DNA of 5,026 bases, taken from positions 1 to 5,026 of IMG/VR virus record IMGVR_UViG_3300000116_000005; one strand, given 5' to 3'. Under the pieces are notes generated by a model that searched no databases, was not told where the DNA came from, and was given only the letters and a program-made list of their open reading frames with translations. This DNA is from a virus. Every line of letters starts with the position of its first letter. The first letter of the stretch is position 1. Positions 1 through 5,026 of the stretch are shown in pieces. A program made the position numbers and the translations under genes.

Positions 1-43
1 CCCATTTAAGCACCTCGCCGTTATAATGCTTATCTAGGGTTTT
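1..43. repeat. Terminal redundancy, copy A (identical to 4984-5026). This is the signature of a circular contig.
   Basis: cccatttaagcacctcgccgttataatgcttatctagggtttt occurs at 1-43 and again at 4984-5026 with 43/43 identity. The Rep reading frame continues seamlessly through the junction. Confidence 0.97.
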
Positions 44-889
44 ATGAAAGTCATTGACTTTTTTGTTTACGTGTTTTAAATATGATCTTTGACTTATTTC
101 TAATCTTTTTTCTTTTTCTGTGAATAATCTTTGTACATATGCTTTTGGTAATCTTCTAATATTTCCGTTCATATCTGCTGTACTTAAATCTTCTGTTTCT
201 ATATGATGTTTACTATAGTTGTTTAAATAAAAACTTCCAAGTATACTGTACTTTGATGATCTTCTTCCTTTTGACATCATAGAAAACGGTCTTACCCGTT
301 TGTCGTTTTTTCCCCAATCTTTGAACATATATTTTGTAACATAGTTTATTGAACTTGCTGTAACTGTTCCTACATCTACGTATCCATGTTTTAAACCTGT
401 TAATGTGTTTTTCCATTGGTCTGTTATAGGTCTAAGATTTGCGATATCATAGTTAAACAATAACATATGATAATGAGGTCTTCGGGTTTTACTACCGTAT
501 TCGCCAACTGCATAATATCTAATAGGTTTACTAACATCTTTAACTTGTTTTTTTGTTACTTTTAGTTCTTTTGTTACATACTTTACATGATCGTTTCTTA
601 AACGTTTTATATAATCTTGTAAATGTTTTTTATGAAGTGTTAAATACCCTTCTTTTGTTCTTGGTATACTCCAATCTCCATATGTTAACGTAATGAATAG
701 CGCTGAATCGCTTCCTAAATACTCGTGTTCTAGTCTTAAACTCCAATCTGATCTTCTTTTTTTTCTACATTGTAGGCATTTGCCACATGGTACTCGGAAG
801 TCTAAGTCTTTTATTTTTAAACTGTTACTGCATGATGTTGCTATAACGTCAGGATAGAATCCAAAGTCTTCTAAGTACCGTTGTTTCAT
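1..889 (-). CDS. VP4: Replication initiator protein (Rep, VP4 / phiX174 gene A family), N-terminal 296 codons. The ORF runs off the window start and continues at 4983->4919.
   Basis: I translated this by hand from the ATG at 889-887 and found no stop codon down to position 1. The product begins MKQRYLEDFGFYPD. It carries a Cys cluster, VPCGKCLQC (767-787), and motif 1, FITLTY (680-697). The HUH motif RPHYHMLLF has HYH at 467-475. The paired catalytic tyrosines YVTKY lie at 329-343, compared with YVAKY in phiX174 protein A. The ORF is absent from the ORF track only because it has no in-window stop. Confidence 0.93.
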   Translation of the reverse strand, partial: MKQRYLEDFGFYPDVIATSCSNSLKIKDLDFRVPCGKCLQCRKKRRSDWSLRLEHEYLGSDSALFITLTYGDWSIPRTKEGYLTLHKKHLQDYIKRLRNDHVKYVTKELKVTKKQVKDVSKPIRYYAVGEYGSKTRRPHYHMLLFNYDIANLRPITDQWKNTLTGLKHGYVDVGTVTASSINYVTKYMFKDWGKNDKRVRPFSMMSKGRRSSKYSILGSFYLNNYSKHHIETEDLSTADMNGNIRRLPKAYVQRLFTEKEKRLEISQRSYLKHVNKKVNDFHKTLDKHYNGEVLKW

Positions 890-978
890 GACAGTCTAAT
901 TCCTCCTCTTTTTGCTAGAATGAATTTGCTTGATCTTCTTTTTGACTTGTAACGTCTTCTTGTTCTATATCTGTTCAT
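886..978 (-). CDS. Small arginine/lysine-rich peptide (30 aa), a putative DNA-binding/packaging protein analogous to phiX174 J or gokushovirus ORF8.
   Basis: Hand translation gives MNRYRTRRRYKSKRRSSKFILAKRGGIRLS, with 13 of 30 residues basic and none acidic. It fills the gap between the VP2 stop (990) and the Rep start (889). Its TGA (886-888) overlaps the Rep ATG as ATGA. It is too short to appear in the ORF track. Confidence 0.6.
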   Translation of the reverse strand: MNRYRTRRRYKSKRRSSKFILAKRGGIRLS

Positions 979-989
979 AATTATTTATT

Positions 990-1862
990 TTAATTTTTGA
1001 TATTTTGTATACTAATTTCTTGCGCTCTATTGACAGTTGTATTATTACCTTTTTTTCCTGTGATTTTATTTATAAAACCATATAAACTGAATAATGTATC
1101 TATACCTTTTTTACCTGTATAAATAAGAGCTATTTGTGCCATAATCATTTGTTTTACAGTCATTTTTACACCTGATTCAAAACCAAACTTTTTTGCGGCT
1201 TCTTTTCCTATTTCTATTTGTTTATTCATAACTCCTGGTTGTGATAAATCTTCTTGTCCTGATAATAATGAGATTACTGTTGCCATTGAATCGTTAAATA
1301 TTCCATTTTGTTTCATACCTAACATTAATTCTTTTAATGCGGCGTCTGACATTGATGATTGATAATCTGCGGCTAAACTTTTGAAATATTGTTCTTTTTG
1401 CATTGTCATTCCTTCACCTATTAAACCTTGAATTACTGCGTTTGCTTTAGCTAATAATGTATTTGCTTTTTGATTTTCTTTATTTACGCCTAACATTGAT
1501 GCTTGTACACCTGCGGCTGTACTTTGTGCGAAATCTGCTGAACTATAATACGGGTCTAATTGTTGAAATTGTGATGTTGGCATTTGATTTGCATTTCCTG
1601 TTGTGCCTTGTCCATACATTAAAGCTGGATTTAATCCTGCTTGTTTTAATCTTTCCATTTGTGCTTTTGGTGTATTGTATGCGTTTTGATAATCCCACAT
1701 TTGTTTATCTAACTTGAACCTTTCGTTCATTAATTGCTTTGATCTGTTAAATGCTTTTTTTCTTGAGCCTATACCAAATAATGCTGATACACCACCCGTT
1801 GCTAATGCTCCTAAACCTCCTGTTGCTGCGCCTTTTAATGCGCCTGTTAACCATGAACCCAT
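990..1862 (-). CDS. VP2: Minor capsid / DNA pilot protein (VP2, functional analogue of phiX174 H).
   Basis: The 290-aa ORF has a Gly/Ala-rich N-terminus (MGSWLTGALKGAATGGLGALATGG). This is followed by ...KQMWDYQNAYNTPKAQMERLKQAGLNPALMYGQG, the AGLNP-L-Y signature typical of gokushovirus-type VP2. An in-frame TAG sits 9 nt upstream of the ATG. Confidence 0.85.
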   Translation of the reverse strand: MGSWLTGALKGAATGGLGALATGGVSALFGIGSRKKAFNRSKQLMNERFKLDKQMWDYQNAYNTPKAQMERLKQAGLNPALMYGQGTTGNANQMPTSQFQQLDPYYSSADFAQSTAAGVQASMLGVNKENQKANTLLAKANAVIQGLIGEGMTMQKEQYFKSLAADYQSSMSDAALKELMLGMKQNGIFNDSMATVISLLSGQEDLSQPGVMNKQIEIGKEAAKKFGFESGVKMTVKQMIMAQIALIYTGKKGIDTLFSLYGFINKITGKKGNNTTVNRAQEISIQNIKN

Positions 1863-1933
1863 ATTATTTACCTATTTTGCCGTCATTGTCTAGATCGGCG
1901 TTAATTACTTCTTCAATTAATTTTATTGTTACT

Positions 1934-2389
1934 TCAAGCAACTTTGGTAAGATGCTTTCTGCTATTTTTAATAGTATTTTCTTTCCCATTTTTTATGTCT
2001 TTTATTGTTATTTTATGTTCTTCGTGGCATAATATTGCCTCTAATGTTGTTACTGCGTGTCTACTAAAGAATACTTGTTGTGGTATTTCTTCCTGATAAT
2101 TTACTAGTCCTACACTGATACATCCTTCCAATTCAATTCCACGATTAGCTGAATGTATACGGATGCCATATCTGTTAGGTACGTCGATAATTTCCAGTGT
2201 TTCTCTATTAAACTTATTGCTAGGAGTATAATTAATAGTATAAGTGCCTTCTTGTATTTTCCTGTCATTGTTTTCTACTGTACTGAAGTAGAATATTCCG
2301 TTATGTTTAGAGTGTACTTCTAATATTCCGAATAAACTTCTTTGGTTTCCTAGTACTTTTCTTTTTAATATTATATCTTTAATAACCAT
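1934..2389 (-). CDS. Accessory protein resembling the DUF5675 family, with a His79...Gly-Cys90 motif and unknown function.
   Basis: The 151-aa ORF is the first ATG after an in-frame TAG. The segment FSTVENNDRKIQEGTYTINYTPSNKFNRETLEIIDVPNRYGIRIHSANRGIELEGCISVG...SRHAVTTLEAIL fits my recollection of the DUF5675 (PF18925) pattern. The His codon is at 2153-2155 and the Cys codon at 2120-2122. It is not part of the microvirus core gene set. The family assignment is from memory and was not searched. Confidence 0.6.
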   Translation of the reverse strand: MVIKDIILKRKVLGNQRSLFGILEVHSKHNGIFYFSTVENNDRKIQEGTYTINYTPSNKFNRETLEIIDVPNRYGIRIHSANRGIELEGCISVGLVNYQEEIPQQVFFSRHAVTTLEAILCHEEHKITIKDIKNGKENTIKNSRKHLTKVA

Positions 2390-2441
2390 ATTGCGAATTT
2401 GATAATTAGTGTTTTTTGCTTTTTTATCGTTTTCCTCTGAT

Positions 2442-2469
2442 TTGAACTATAATTTATAGTATGTTAATT
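2442..2469 (+). other. dif-like 28-mer, a candidate XerC/XerD-type recombination site, overlapping a perfect 7+1+7 palindrome (2446-2460).
   Basis: ttgaactataa-tttata-gtatgttaatt compared with E. coli dif GGTGCGCATAA-TGTATA-TTATGTTAAAT gives 18/28 identities overall. Over the conserved inner-XerC, central and XerD part it gives 18/21. The core TATGTTAA is identical. The palindrome actataa-t-ttatagt lies at 2446-2460. Confidence 0.3.
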
Positions 2470-2516
2470 GCTAATTCCTTAGAGGTATACGCTAATATAT
2501 GAATTTTTTCTAATAT

Positions 2517-2538
2517 AAATAATAGTCCCCTATTATTT
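2517..2538. repeat. Inverted repeat / hairpin with a 9-bp stem and 4-nt loop.
   Basis: aaataatag (2517-2525) pairs perfectly with ctattattt (2530-2538). The loop is tccc, which reads GGGA on the coding strand. The stem is AT-rich, with only one G:C pair. Confidence 0.6.
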
Positions 2539-2588
2539 TCTTACTTTTTTCCCTTTTTTTTTGTCTTATTGCCTATTTCATAGTCATT

Positions 2589-2621
2589 GAGCCATATATT
2601 ATCAAGTCGTATATATGGCTC
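2589..2621 (-). other. 11-bp stem / 11-nt loop hairpin, a candidate rolling-circle (+)-strand origin with a phiX174-like nick motif in the loop.
   Basis: gagccatatat (2589-2599) pairs perfectly with atatatggctc (2611-2621). On the coding strand the loop plus the adjoining arm reads CGACTTGATAATA (2609->2597). The phiX174 ori is CAACTTG^ATATTA, so 11/13 positions are identical, including ACTTGATA. The structure is certain; the function is inferred. Confidence 0.4.
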
Positions 2622-2631
2622 TTTAATACAC

Positions 2632-2662
2632 AAAAAAAAGGCCGATATTTCTACCGACCTTT
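2632..2662 (-). terminator. Rho-independent terminator downstream of VP3.
   Basis: The coding strand reads AAAGGUCGGUA-GAAA-UAUCGGCCUUU followed by further U residues, an 8-U run in total. The stem is 11 bp including two G-U pairs, and the loop is a GAAA tetraloop. It begins 22 nt after the VP3 stop codon (2685-2687). Confidence 0.65.
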
Positions 2663-2684
2663 AAAACAAAACTAACTACCCAAA

Positions 2685-3062
2685 TTATTCTGATTTGGTC
2701 TCTTTTTCTGTTTGTGTATCTACTACTGCTTCTTTAGATGCTTGTATTAGTGCTTCTTGCTTTGCCTTTTCGTGATCTGATATTTTTGTTTGCAATGCTT
2801 TCACTTGACTACTAACTTCTGATAGATATTGCAGTTTTTCAACTGGTTCCATTTCTTGAATTTTATTCAATGTTTGTGAGCTGAATGTTGCTTGATCCTC
2901 ATAATAAGGTGTCTTATAATTGTCGTATGTCATACCTTGTGTATTTCTAAATAGAATTTCTCTAACTGACATTGACTGATTTGGTTTGGTGATAATTTCA
3001 CCTGTGTTGTCCTGAACTGTTATTTTCTGAACTTTCCACTTATCTTTAATTTTTTTGTTCAT
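2685..3062 (-). CDS. VP3: Putative internal scaffolding protein (VP3-like).
   Basis: The 125-aa ORF has a size and position typical of microvirus VP3. The N-terminal segment KPNQSMSVREILFRNTQG resembles the P..QS....I..R...G motif I recall from gokushovirus VP3 (Chp2-type ...PSLTKQSF..DIN.IV.RF.KTG). The C-terminal half is acidic and probably helical. The start overlaps the upstream ORF by 17 nt. Confidence 0.55.
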   Translation of the reverse strand: MNKKIKDKWKVQKITVQDNTGEIITKPNQSMSVREILFRNTQGMTYDNYKTPYYEDQATFSSQTLNKIQEMEPVEKLQYLSEVSSQVKALQTKISDHEKAKQEALIQASKEAVVDTQTEKETKSE

Positions 3063-3279
3063 CTGTCTTTAAATTACTTGTTAATAATTGATTTAATCTT
3101 AATACTTCTTTGTATAATAATGCTAATGCTGAACCATTTTCGTATACCATTGATTCTAATGTGTTTTCTTTAATATACTTTTCCTTGTACTCTTGAAACT
3201 TTTGTTTGAATTCTTTAACTTCTTTTTTTGTTGTTTCATCTTCTGTTCCTGATATTACATCATCTTTAATTAATTTCAT
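3046..3279 (-). CDS. Hypothetical 77-aa protein, Lys/Glu-rich and probably helical, with no family recognised.
   Basis: It fills the space between VP1 and VP3 on the coding strand exactly: a 14-nt gap after the VP1 stop and a 17-nt overlap with the VP3 start. The sequence is MKLIKDDVISGTEDETTKKEVKEFKQKFQEYKEKYIKEN...LLYKEVLRLNQLLTSNLKTDEQKN. I recognise no motif. Confidence 0.55.
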   Translation of the reverse strand: MKLIKDDVISGTEDETTKKEVKEFKQKFQEYKEKYIKENTLESMVYENGSALALLYKEVLRLNQLLTSNLKTDEQKN

Positions 3280-3293
3280 TTTATTTTATTTAT

Positions 3294-4922
3294 TTAGGTT
3301 AAACTTGGGTTACTGAAGTATGGTATTGGTCTTACTGCGTTTACTTTATGATATAAACTTATCCAGCATTTGTCTTCATTTGCATCTTCTATTGCAAATA
3401 TTCTTGTGTCGGGTGCACATTCTATGAATGATTGATTTAAAGTTGGTGCGTTGTTTTCGAACCTTCTTGATAGTTCCCAATGTGCTAGCGTATCTCTAAA
3501 GTCTCCGGCTACTCTGTTTTCTGCGTACTTATATTCCGCATATCGTTGCTGATATCCAAATATTTGATTATCGTCTGTTGTATTTCCTTCTACATAAATT
3601 TCTTTATTGTATACTTCTTGTTCGCCTAGATTTGCGAATTGTGGGAAATAATGATCGAATTTGTCAAACTTTTGCCAAAATCTGTTTAATCCTTGTACGT
3701 ATGATGTTTTAGGTATAATTCTACATAATCCTAATATAATTCCATGTTCGTCGAATGATTGTGTAAATCCTATATTATCTCCTAATCCTAAAGCATGTCC
3801 ATACATATCTCCTGCTGGTCTTGATGTTGATACTGATTTATCTTCGTATGTACTTAATATTTCTGATACCATTATTGGTGTTTTACCACCTCCTAAGTAT
3901 TTTGGAATTTGTACTGTATAATCTGGAATTCTTTCTCCAAATATTGCGTATATCTGTTCCCTGTATCTTGAACCAGCTCTGGCCATAAGCTCTAACCACT
4001 GTTGAAGAGCTGATGCTTTTCTTAGTTCGTTAATTGTTGCGCCTGTTGCTGATGATAAATCTGCTACTAAATTTCTAGAATTGTCTATATCTATTCCTGT
4101 TGTGCCTGGTAAATTAGCAATAACTTGTCCTGAACTTGAAGTTTGTAATGCTGAAACACCATCAAAACTCATACTATTTATTGTATTACCTCCTGAATTG
4201 TTTCTTATTTGTGTTGAATAAGAAGTATCGTTATCATATAAAATTGGTGCTGTGCTACCTAATGGAAGTGTTACTTCTGCGCCTCTTTGTAAGAATGGTA
4301 ATGAACTTGTAAAATAATCTTTTTGCCAATTTGATTTTCTTAATGACATTAGAGAAACTTGATCTGTTGATGTATGTACACCTGAACCTGTAAATTGTTC
4401 GTGTTCGTCTCCTACGTTTTGGTCTCTGAAGTATTCGTGCCATATTAATTGATATGCTCTAAATGGTAAAGCTGAAATTTCTTGTCTTTCTGCTGTTGCT
4501 GTTGCTATATCGTTCCAAGCTCCTCCTTTTGTTCCAGCTGTTGCTGTTGTTGGTGGTACTCCTAAATAGTCTGCTAATGATCCTTTTGTTAAAAAAGTTT
4601 GTGATGTTGCGCTTACTCTGATTCTTGGATAAGAGGGTAGATCGTTTCCGTCTTCTCCTCCTGTAATGAAGTCTTTCCATTCGTCCCATATAATTCTGTA
4701 TGGTACAAAGAAATAATCTAGTTTAAAGTCTACATTGTGCATCATTGGTGCTAATAATGGACTAAACCTTACTAATTGTTGTGTGTTTACTTTGAAGCTA
4801 TCGCCAGGGATTACATCTTGTATGTAACATGGATATAATTCACCCATGTTTCCCGTCATCTTAACTTCATGAGATAAGTCGAAATTGTTTTTCTTCGGCT
4901 TTTTAACATAAATGTCATTCAT
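3294..4922 (-). CDS. VP1: Major capsid protein (VP1, Microviridae F-protein family).
   Basis: The 542-aa ORF carries hallmark blocks. These include NNFDLSHEVKMTGNMGELYPCYIQDVIPGDSF, LLAPMMHNVDFKLDYFFVPYRIIWDEWKDF, INELRKASALQQWLELMARAGSRYREQIYAIFG and IPKYLGGG. A Ser/Thr/Gly/Asn-rich insertion at about aa 221-295 sits where gokushovirus VP1 carries its large variable loop. Confidence 0.97.
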   Translation of the reverse strand: MNDIYVKKPKKNNFDLSHEVKMTGNMGELYPCYIQDVIPGDSFKVNTQQLVRFSPLLAPMMHNVDFKLDYFFVPYRIIWDEWKDFITGGEDGNDLPSYPRIRVSATSQTFLTKGSLADYLGVPPTTATAGTKGGAWNDIATATAERQEISALPFRAYQLIWHEYFRDQNVGDEHEQFTGSGVHTSTDQVSLMSLRKSNWQKDYFTSSLPFLQRGAEVTLPLGSTAPILYDNDTSYSTQIRNNSGGNTINSMSFDGVSALQTSSSGQVIANLPGTTGIDIDNSRNLVADLSSATGATINELRKASALQQWLELMARAGSRYREQIYAIFGERIPDYTVQIPKYLGGGKTPIMVSEILSTYEDKSVSTSRPAGDMYGHALGLGDNIGFTQSFDEHGIILGLCRIIPKTSYVQGLNRFWQKFDKFDHYFPQFANLGEQEVYNKEIYVEGNTTDDNQIFGYQQRYAEYKYAENRVAGDFRDTLAHWELSRRFENNAPTLNQSFIECAPDTRIFAIEDANEDKCWISLYHKVNAVRPIPYFSNPSLT

Positions 4923-5026
4923 AATGTTTCTGCGTTTATAATATTATTTAATAATCGGCGATTGTCTGATTCTTTTGCTTGTCCCCATTTAAGCACCTCG
5001 CCGTTATAATGCTTATCTAGGGTTTT
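4919..5026 (-). CDS. VP4: C-terminal end of the same Rep/VP4 gene across the circular junction (4984-5026 duplicates 1-43).
   Basis: The frame continues ...GEVLKW|GQAKESDNRRLLNNIINAETL and ends in TGA at 4919-4921. The joined protein is 317 aa. The Rep stop overlaps the VP1 start in an ATGA arrangement (VP1 ATG at 4922-4920). Confidence 0.9.
   Translation of the reverse strand, partial: KTLDKHYNGEVLKWGQAKESDNRRLLNNIINAETL
4984..5026. repeat. Terminal redundancy, copy B (identical to 1-43).
   Basis: Exact 43-nt match to the start of the window, at an offset of 4983 nt. Confidence 0.97.

Follow-up and report, generated by a model that had tools for sequence, protein, structure and literature searches.

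A dif-like site of the Bacteroidota type in an uncultured marine microvirus clade and its probable role in Xer-mediated integration

The window analyzed here, the whole 5,026-nucleotide (nt) stretch at positions 1 to 5,026 of IMG/VR virus record IMGVR_UViG_3300000116_000005, is a 4983-nt circular microvirus genome with a 43-nt terminal redundancy (bases 1 to 43 recur as 4984 to 5026). Its GC content is 32%, and every gene lies on the minus strand. Pfam and PHROGs scans of seven open reading frames (ORFs; six of at least 77 amino acids [aa] and one of 41 aa) assigned capsid, pilot, Rep, and DUF5675 families and yielded no integrase or other recombinase; an earlier note on this DNA had already said that no integrase is encoded. 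The nearest GenBank-derived phage records share only about 44% capsid identity, and a Parabacteroides phage, with a Bacteroidota host, is among them. The sole large non-coding stretch, positions 2390 to 2684 (295 nt), holds the subject of this report, a 28-bp sequence that resembles dif, the chromosomal site at which XerC/XerD-type recombinases resolve chromosome dimers. The features of the window are collected in Table 1.

Table 1. Features of the window, with coordinates, strand, and details
Feature	Coordinates	Strand	Details
28-bp dif mimic (putative attP), TTGAACTATAATTTATAGTATGTTAATT	2442-2469	+	XerC arm to XerD arm, antisense to all genes
XerC-arm equivalent, TTGAACTATAA	2442-2452	+	11/11 versus bacterial TTGAAC variant
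Central region, TTTATA	2453-2458	+	6/6 versus Bacteroidota dif center; also identical to Sulfurovum dif center
XerD-arm equivalent, GTATGTTAATT	2459-2469	+	9/11 versus bacterial TTATGTTAAAT; mismatches at positions 18 and 27
Inverted repeat around the site, CCTCTGA / TTAGAGG	2434-2440 / 2479-2485		G-T wobble on + strand; read directly
Candidate origin hairpin (Rep nick site), GAGCCATATAT-ACGACTTGATA-ATATATGGCTC	2589-2621	-	Followed by AATGACTA box
Intrinsic terminator after 125-aa ORF	2637-2662	-	11-pair stem, then T run; 0.0 expected in shuffles
Capsid gene	3294-4922	-	Phage_F, E = 1e-110
Pilot protein gene	990-1862	-	
DUF5675 gene	1934-2389	-	Pfam, E = 7e-17
Rep gene	from 889 across junction to 4919	-	
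ORFs of 77 aa and 125 aa		-	Without family match

The site has the 28-bp layout of dif, with an 11-bp XerC arm, a 6-bp center, and an 11-bp XerD arm, and shows inner dyad symmetry of the ATAA/TTAT type, with ATAA and GTAT in the inner arms. The earlier note had based its reading on 18 matches to Escherichia coli dif over 21 inner positions, and that count was confirmed at 2442 to 2469; over the full length, 18 of 28 positions agree. Taken alone, the match of a single genome to E. coli dif is weak evidence and only modestly significant. The 21-position mask gave a P value of about 0.003 against dinucleotide shuffles, the mask having been picked post hoc, once the match was known, and the entire 28-mer gave a P value of about 0.5. 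A weight matrix derived from 48 published proteobacterial dif sites (PMC2731167) scored the site at 11.7 bits, the top rank in the window genome, with a P value of 0.11. The nearest published dif is that of Sulfurovum, at 22/28 identity (P = 0.035 for at least 22/28), and published proteobacterial sites compared with one another share a median of only 18/28. The site of a relative, TTGTCCTATAATTTATAGTATGTAAAAC, matches the Syntrophus dif at 24 of 28 positions with an identical XerC arm, and the published proteobacterial list shows that TTGTCCTATAA and TTGTTCTATAA are real XerC arms. It is the comparative data, however, that settle the question. A second, weaker dif-like match, GGGGACTATTATTTATATTAGAAAAAAT, is found on the minus strand at 2503 to 2530. 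It is inverted relative to the main site, stands 33 nt away, and agrees with E. coli dif at 18 of 28 positions; it is not kept in the closest relative and is therefore probably due to chance.

Counterparts of the site were found in bacterial chromosomes. A scan of bacterial genomes with the pattern TTGNNCNATAATNTATANTATGTWAA, derived from the sites of the phage family, which fixed TTG, C, and ATAA in the XerC arm, left positions 4 and 5 free in that arm, and in the center freed only position 13, gave at least 120 matches, one per matching locus; the figures that follow hold among the matches listed. By record title, about 106 of the 120 are Bacteroidota. Flavobacteriaceae form the largest named group, and the genera include Winogradskyella, Aquimarina, Polaribacter, Tenacibaculum, Maribacter, Aequorivita, and Flavobacterium. 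Chitinophagales and Bacteroidales also occur, and the rest consist of 8 Ignavibacteria or Chlorobi and about 6 records from other groups or with uninformative names. The sites are intergenic in 116 of 120 cases. When 119 of the bacterial sites are compared, positions 4 and 5, left free in the pattern, usually carry T/A and A/C, and single bases prevail at position 13 (T in 103), position 18 (T in 116), position 27 (A in 97), and position 28 (T in 114). GC skew is +0.067 to the left of the sites, beside the XerC arm, and -0.034 to the right, beside the XerD arm; at 53 of 67 loci the left value exceeds the right (P = 8e-11 by paired t test). Because they occur once per locus, are intergenic, coincide with a switch in the sign of GC skew, and are strongly non-random at the positions left free, these matches are genuine dif sites at replication termini.

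Four of the matches listed (L201, L254, L261, and L287) carry TTGAACTATAATTTATATTATGTTAAAT; they come from two Flavobacteriaceae genome bins, one uncultured Bacteroidetes single-cell genome, and one short Rhodobiaceae-binned contig. The window site is identical to this sequence at 26 of 28 positions, both differences falling in the XerD arm. The XerD arm of the candidate host dif consequently shows no marked difference from that of the phage, and the outer XerC arm, which the earlier note had regarded as non-matching, does fail to match E. coli dif but in its TTGAAC form agrees with Bacteroidota dif. The XerC-arm variants seen in phages (TTGAAC, TTGTAC, TTGCAC, TTGTCC, TTGACC, and TTGTTC) each also occur among the bacterial sites listed. 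The identification of a XerC/XerD-type site is in this way borne out and extended, with strong support for reading the window sequence as a full-length mimic of Bacteroidota dif, XerC arm included. The palindrome offset from the dif register (2446 to 2460), which had been raised as a caveat, is indeed perfect, though only because G18 pairs with C6; the pair is lost with the T18 of the bacterial variant.

The dif match itself indicates a Bacteroidota host, most likely among uncultured marine Flavobacteriaceae. This agrees with one part of the host range suggested earlier, the Bacteroidota and within them mainly Flavobacteriaceae, and gives no support to the other part, the Firmicutes. XerC and XerD homologues have been reported in Bacteroidetes (PMC3091885). 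A SAR11 host was also considered and is unlikely because Pelagibacter is reported to lack dif and Xer. A likeness to XerH or XerS sites (AACTATAATTT) was dropped, as the arm spacing differs. Two observations on bacterial sequences are recorded here. In four Bacteroidota loci (L212, L213, L226, and L293), a second, degenerate dif-like sequence, for example TGTTGTTATATCTGATATTATGCTAAAT, lies about 35 nt upstream of dif; it could be a remnant of past integrations or an accessory site. In a genome bin of Candidatus Nanosyncoccus (Saccharibacteria; L253), two dif-like sites of the G18 type stand in the same orientation 6.9 kb apart, at 138 to 165 and 7046 to 7073, and may mark an integrated element.

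Capsid searches recovered 44 relatives of the window virus in IMG/VR and more in metagenomes. Every relative with at least 60% capsid identity is a free contig no longer than about 5 kb, and most come from marine or estuarine samples. The site is present in all terminally redundant (circular) clade genomes recovered, down to about 60% capsid identity, and hence in the close relatives where the earlier note had proposed to look for it. Mean pairwise identity is 0.77 within the 28-mer versus 0.48 and 0.37 in the adjacent 28-nt windows. The pattern ATAAT.T.T...ATG is nearly invariant across the clade, and the majority consensus is TTGAACTATAATTTATAGTATGTTAAAT. The dif-like motif is the best-conserved non-coding element of this microvirus clade.

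Some relatives lack the motif. It is missing from L045 to L048 (68% capsid identity), each a multimer built of 5046-nt units, which retain the candidate origin hairpin, and likewise from L029, L043, L037, and L044, which retain a hairpin with a ACTTGATA-type loop. In the lineage of L030, L025, and L084, the motif is located in another intergenic region, between the capsid gene and the 77-aa ORF, and the L030 origin hairpin remains apart from it, between the 125-aa and 124-aa ORFs. Loss in some relatives and relocation in the L030 lineage therefore make the motif a separable and dispensable module. Its conserved core begins 54, 64 to 66, 71 to 76, or 80 nt upstream of the next start codon, depending on the subclade, and the spacer in between (window 2390 to 2441 and equivalents) is A-rich and contains AAAAACAC. 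A C-rich hairpin, CCCCCCCTAGGGTAGGGGGG, occurs about 80 nt upstream of the motif in some relatives (L016, L024, and L030, where the pair lies at 2160 to 2192 and 2272 to 2299), and in the lineage of L030, L025, and L084 this hairpin and the motif are found together in the different intergenic region. The window keeps only AGGGGAC of it, near 2521 to 2527. The DUF5675 gene is kept at the same position in most of the clade; a tblastn search of the L025, L030, and L084 lineage found none.

The candidate origin hairpin at 2589 to 2621 folds as DNA at -9.1 kcal/mol (z = -4.75). With its ACTTGATA-type loop it occurs in nearly all relatives that cover the region, where the stems differ in sequence yet stay complementary, and it reaches viruses with only 42% and 34% capsid identity. 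The loop resembles CAACTTG/ATATTAAT, the nick sequence of phiX174. Its near-universal presence, its complementary stems, and the phiX174-like loop make the hairpin the better candidate for a nick site, and it is probably the site at which Rep nicks the genomes of this microvirus group. The dif-like motif was itself considered as the rolling-circle origin and rejected: it is absent from hairpin-bearing relatives, it has moved in one lineage, and a separate hairpin exists.

The site also recurs well outside the clade. A scan of IMG/VR with a degenerate pattern derived from the clade returned 66 contigs, members of the clade among them. About 20 microviruses of 4.1 to 4.7 kb, with 40 to 47% capsid identity and about 33% Rep identity to the window virus, carry TTGAACTATAATTTATAGTATGTTAAAC, which matches the window site at 26 of 28 positions. 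Microviruses of 5 to 6 kb with 21 to 28% capsid identity carry TTGTCC(T/G)ATAAT.TATAGTATGT.AA. The cultured Cellulophaga baltica phages phi12a:1 (L138) and phi12:2 (L191), which encode a Rep_trans-type Rep, carry TTGTACTATAAT(C/T)TATAGTATGTAAATT, and Cellulophaga phage Omtje_1 has the intergenic dif-like sequence TTGTCCTATAATTTATATTATATACAAC (L320, positions 1121 to 1148). The genome of the temperate Flavobacterium phage phiCjT23 carries ATGAACTATAATTTATAGTATGATTTGC across the origin of its record. Dif-like sites are thus found in at least three other lineages of small single-stranded DNA (ssDNA) phages, and they are intergenic in 9 of 9 other phage genomes checked. That a non-coding site stays nearly identical despite highly divergent proteins points to a constraint imposed by the host. 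In the literature on Cellulophaga phages, the word dif does not occur in the flavophage isolation paper, nor XerC in the 2025 Cellulophaga phage paper.

Two properties distinguish the phage sites. Position 18, the first base of the XerD arm, is not T but G, C, or A in 31 of the 45 distinct sites borne by phages, versus 3 of the 119 bacterial sites listed (Fisher P = 3e-19), and the G18 of the window (position 2459) is common to phiCjT23, the Cellulophaga phages, and many microviruses. In addition, among 96 small phage contigs that represent unrelated families, 87 have their site running antisense to the genes when read from XerC arm to XerD arm; those that do not are mainly one group of genomes of 5.5 to 6 kb (L151, L154, L174, L179, and L195). 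We put forward, tentatively and at rather long odds, that the phage sites are tuned variants of dif, in which position 18 and the antisense bias would mark a shared, convergent change of the Xer reaction. The exchange might, for instance, be XerC-first or XerD-crippled and in that way favor integration or a stable carrier state. If this were true, dif mimicry would belong to the lifestyle of small ssDNA phages of marine Flavobacteriia in general, Cellulophaga phages included.

In our judgment the site probably serves Xer-mediated integration at the host dif, perhaps together with the resolution of multimers of the replicative form. It lies in non-coding DNA, where insertion would disrupt no gene, of an element that has no recombinase of its own, it keeps the dif layout, and it is close in sequence to the dif of the predicted host lineage. 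We infer that Xer binding, strand exchange, and integration in this clade would run as follows. The phage 28-mer would mimic the chromosomal dif of the Bacteroidota host, so that XerC/XerD-type recombinases of the host could bind both arms in the double-stranded replicative form. The phage site would then recombine with host dif at the replication terminus, and the entire phage genome would be inserted, reversibly and without a phage integrase. If two phage circles took part in this reaction instead, multimers would be formed or resolved.

Several results weigh against integration. The integrated copies that the earlier note had looked to as confirmation were sought in genomes and metagenomes, and none of this clade was found: a scan of 185,579 species-representative genomes with two clade-invariant capsid peptides returned no relative, and the metagenome collection yielded no integrated copy, its relatives with at least 60% capsid identity being the free contigs described above. 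In nine of the 120 closest capsid-protein clusters the longest contig exceeds 5.5 kb, and the five longest inspected are tandem multimers; contigs of up to 16.6 kb with close capsid genes are likewise all tandem multimers. These searches spanned one genome per species, two peptide patterns, and assemblies that are prone to break at such junctions, and reversible Xer-mediated integration is expected to leave few prophages (PMC7062461). Further, the motif is near-universal in the clade, in contrast to the sporadic dif motifs of gokushoviruses, and this could mean that each infection cycle depends on it; position 18, beside the expected point of XerD cleavage, is usually unlike the host base. Because no integrated copy of the clade was found, the capacity for lysogeny proposed in the earlier note is something that we infer, reasonably in our view.

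Integrated elements of other kinds came to light in the course of these searches. Human-gut contigs with integrated microviruses at 42 to 47% capsid identity were considered as a precedent and rejected, as the flanking repeats, found in two of them, are not dif-like. In L086 (8943 to 8960 and 13638 to 13655) and L109 (7824 and 12636), the direct repeats that flank the prophage are the palindrome AGTTC-N5-GAACT, which suggests a different integration site or recombinase. A Flavobacterium genome bin, L240 (5107 to 5134 and 5187 to 7783), has a 364-aa ORF without Pfam match that begins 53 nt from dif. About 1.9 kb from the same dif it has a 251-aa ORF whose product shares 30% identity with that of the 241-aa ORF of phi12a:1, and that phage ORF occupies the position of the phiCjT23 capsid gene. 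The L240 element is probably an integrated ssDNA prophage of the phiCjT23-like or Cellulophaga-phage-like kind.

The explanation that comes closest to integration at dif keeps the Xer/dif-type site and changes its use, to a role like that of plasmid cer or psi. The site would resolve multimers of the replicative form or sustain a plasmid-like carrier state (pseudolysogeny), and integration would be rare or incidental. We consider this a minority possibility that deserves to be taken seriously. It fits the presence of the site in all circular clade genomes and the lack of an integrated copy in the searches above, and both reactions can use any circle that bears a dif-like sequence. Circular, non-integrated phage DNA does persist in E. 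coli colonies that survive infection by a gokushovirus (PMC7062461). Some complete relatives lack the site, however, and the near-identical phiCjT23 site goes with real prophages. The XerCD core is present in the window, but no cer-type accessory sequence is recognizable by sequence alone. Head-to-tail multimers are common among clade contigs (L012, L045 to L048, L129 to L131, L134, and L160). Some join slightly different variants at 88 to 96% identity, and L160 is a multimer of two variants. These contigs may be real replicative-form multimers or artifacts of assembly or amplification, from which they are not distinguishable.

It is improbable that the site acts as promoter or operator of the DUF5675-pilot-Rep-capsid transcription unit downstream. 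In favor of this reading, the core begins 54 to 80 nt ahead of the next start codon in every lineage, including the one in which the motif moved, and a sigma-70-like sequence, TTAGCA-17-TATAGT, does overlap the site on the gene strand. This is the sole such match overlapping the site, and it was rejected as a promoter since its -35 and -10 hexamers are not kept among relatives (TATAAG, TATAGG, and CCCCTA occur). The region has 3 promoter-like matches versus 1.9 expected in shuffles, which is no excess, and what is conserved is a single contiguous core with the shape of dif. A promoter would also leave unexplained the 26/28 identity to a single-copy site at bacterial termini.

Slightly less probable still is a structural role in the single-stranded genome, for example as complementary-strand origin or packaging signal, or a role as second Rep-binding site. 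The sequence is imperfectly palindromic and forms a strong hairpin in L030 and L084, many relatives have bracketing stems of differing sequence, and CATACTA/TAGTATG is shared with the stem of the origin hairpin in many of them. The folds are nevertheless weak (-3 to -8 kcal/mol over 98 nt) and inconsistent, bracketing stems are missing from L001, L019, and L051, which are the closest relatives, and a conserved ssDNA or RNA structure around the site was rejected on these grounds. Nor does the motif co-vary with the origin-hairpin stem; it is absent from complete relatives and recurs in phages with an unrelated, Rep_trans-type Rep. A chance match in AT-rich DNA, the other caveat of the earlier note and the reading that the single-genome statistics would have allowed (P = 0.11 and about 0.5), is refuted in practice by conservation across the clade, recurrence in unrelated phages, and 26/28 identity to genuine dif sites.

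These results allow sequence alone to predict the host of an uncultured marine clade of microviruses, the capsid proteins of which are at most about 44% identical to those of GenBank-derived phage records. If the predicted integration takes place, such abundant small phages may not be purely lytic, which bears on models of flavobacterial mortality in algal blooms. As at least four deep lineages of small ssDNA phages carry the site, the phages of this host group seem to have adopted dif mimicry repeatedly. Cultured members exist in two of the dif-bearing lineages, the Cellulophaga phages with their hosts and phiCjT23, and so the prediction is directly testable.

Several known systems invite comparison. 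Plasmid cer and psi have a XerC/XerD core site on a small circular replicon and work with an accessory sequence of about 180 bp that binds PepA together with ArgR or ArcA; nothing comparable to that accessory sequence was recognized in the window. The Vibrio phages CTXphi, VGJphi, and TLCphi are ssDNA phages that integrate through host XerCD and dif, and unlike the window virus they are filamentous. CTXphi integrates its single-stranded form by means of two inverted dif-like sequences. An inverted pair of this type was rejected for the window, where the second match at 2503 to 2530 is not conserved in the closest relative and there is accordingly no evidence for the CTXphi mechanism.

Among Microviridae, the BMV1 to BMV7 proviruses of the Alpavirinae (Krupovic and Forterre 2011, PMC3091885) resemble the window virus in lacking an integrase and in having Bacteroidota hosts. 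They are flanked by dif-like repeats, and Xer-mediated integration was proposed for them from these flanks (PMC3091885). They differ in being gut and oral Bacteroidales proviruses of about 6 kb, with a capsid group apart from microviruses and gokushoviruses. The gokushoviruses (Kirchberger and Ochman 2020, PMC7062461) are likewise integrase-less Microviridae with a non-coding, 28-bp dif-like site, whose phage copy also deviates from the host dif in the XerD arm. Enterobacterial gokushoviruses such as EC6098 integrate at dif, with xerC, xerD, and the phage motif required experimentally, and dif-like motifs were found in 48 other metagenome-assembled gokushovirus genomes (PMC7062461). Dif-flanked prophages are known for gokushoviruses, whereas the window clade is known from free genomes. 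In the window clade, by contrast, the host dif is of the Bacteroidota type (TTGnnCTATAAT TTATA TTATGTwAAAT) and the motif is near-universal rather than sporadic.

A likeness in the site itself links the window to phiCjT23. The phiCjT23 sequence ATGAACTATAATTTATAGTATG is identical to positions 2 to 22 of the window site, G18 included, and phiCjT23-like Flavobacterium prophages are flanked by 28-nt dif motifs (PMC9719478). Host phylum, non-coding position, and orientation antisense to the genes are also shared. The outer half of the XerD arm is a degenerate GATTTGC in phiCjT23, and GTTAATT is kept in the window. In other respects the two phages are far apart: phiCjT23 is a lipid-containing phage with a double jelly-roll capsid protein, and its Rep shares 33% identity with that of Cellulophaga phage phi12a:1, which is of the Rep_trans type. 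Integrase-less Microviridae that bear dif were already known, and what the present comparison adds to them is a host prediction and the recurrence of dif mimicry across families of small ssDNA phages.

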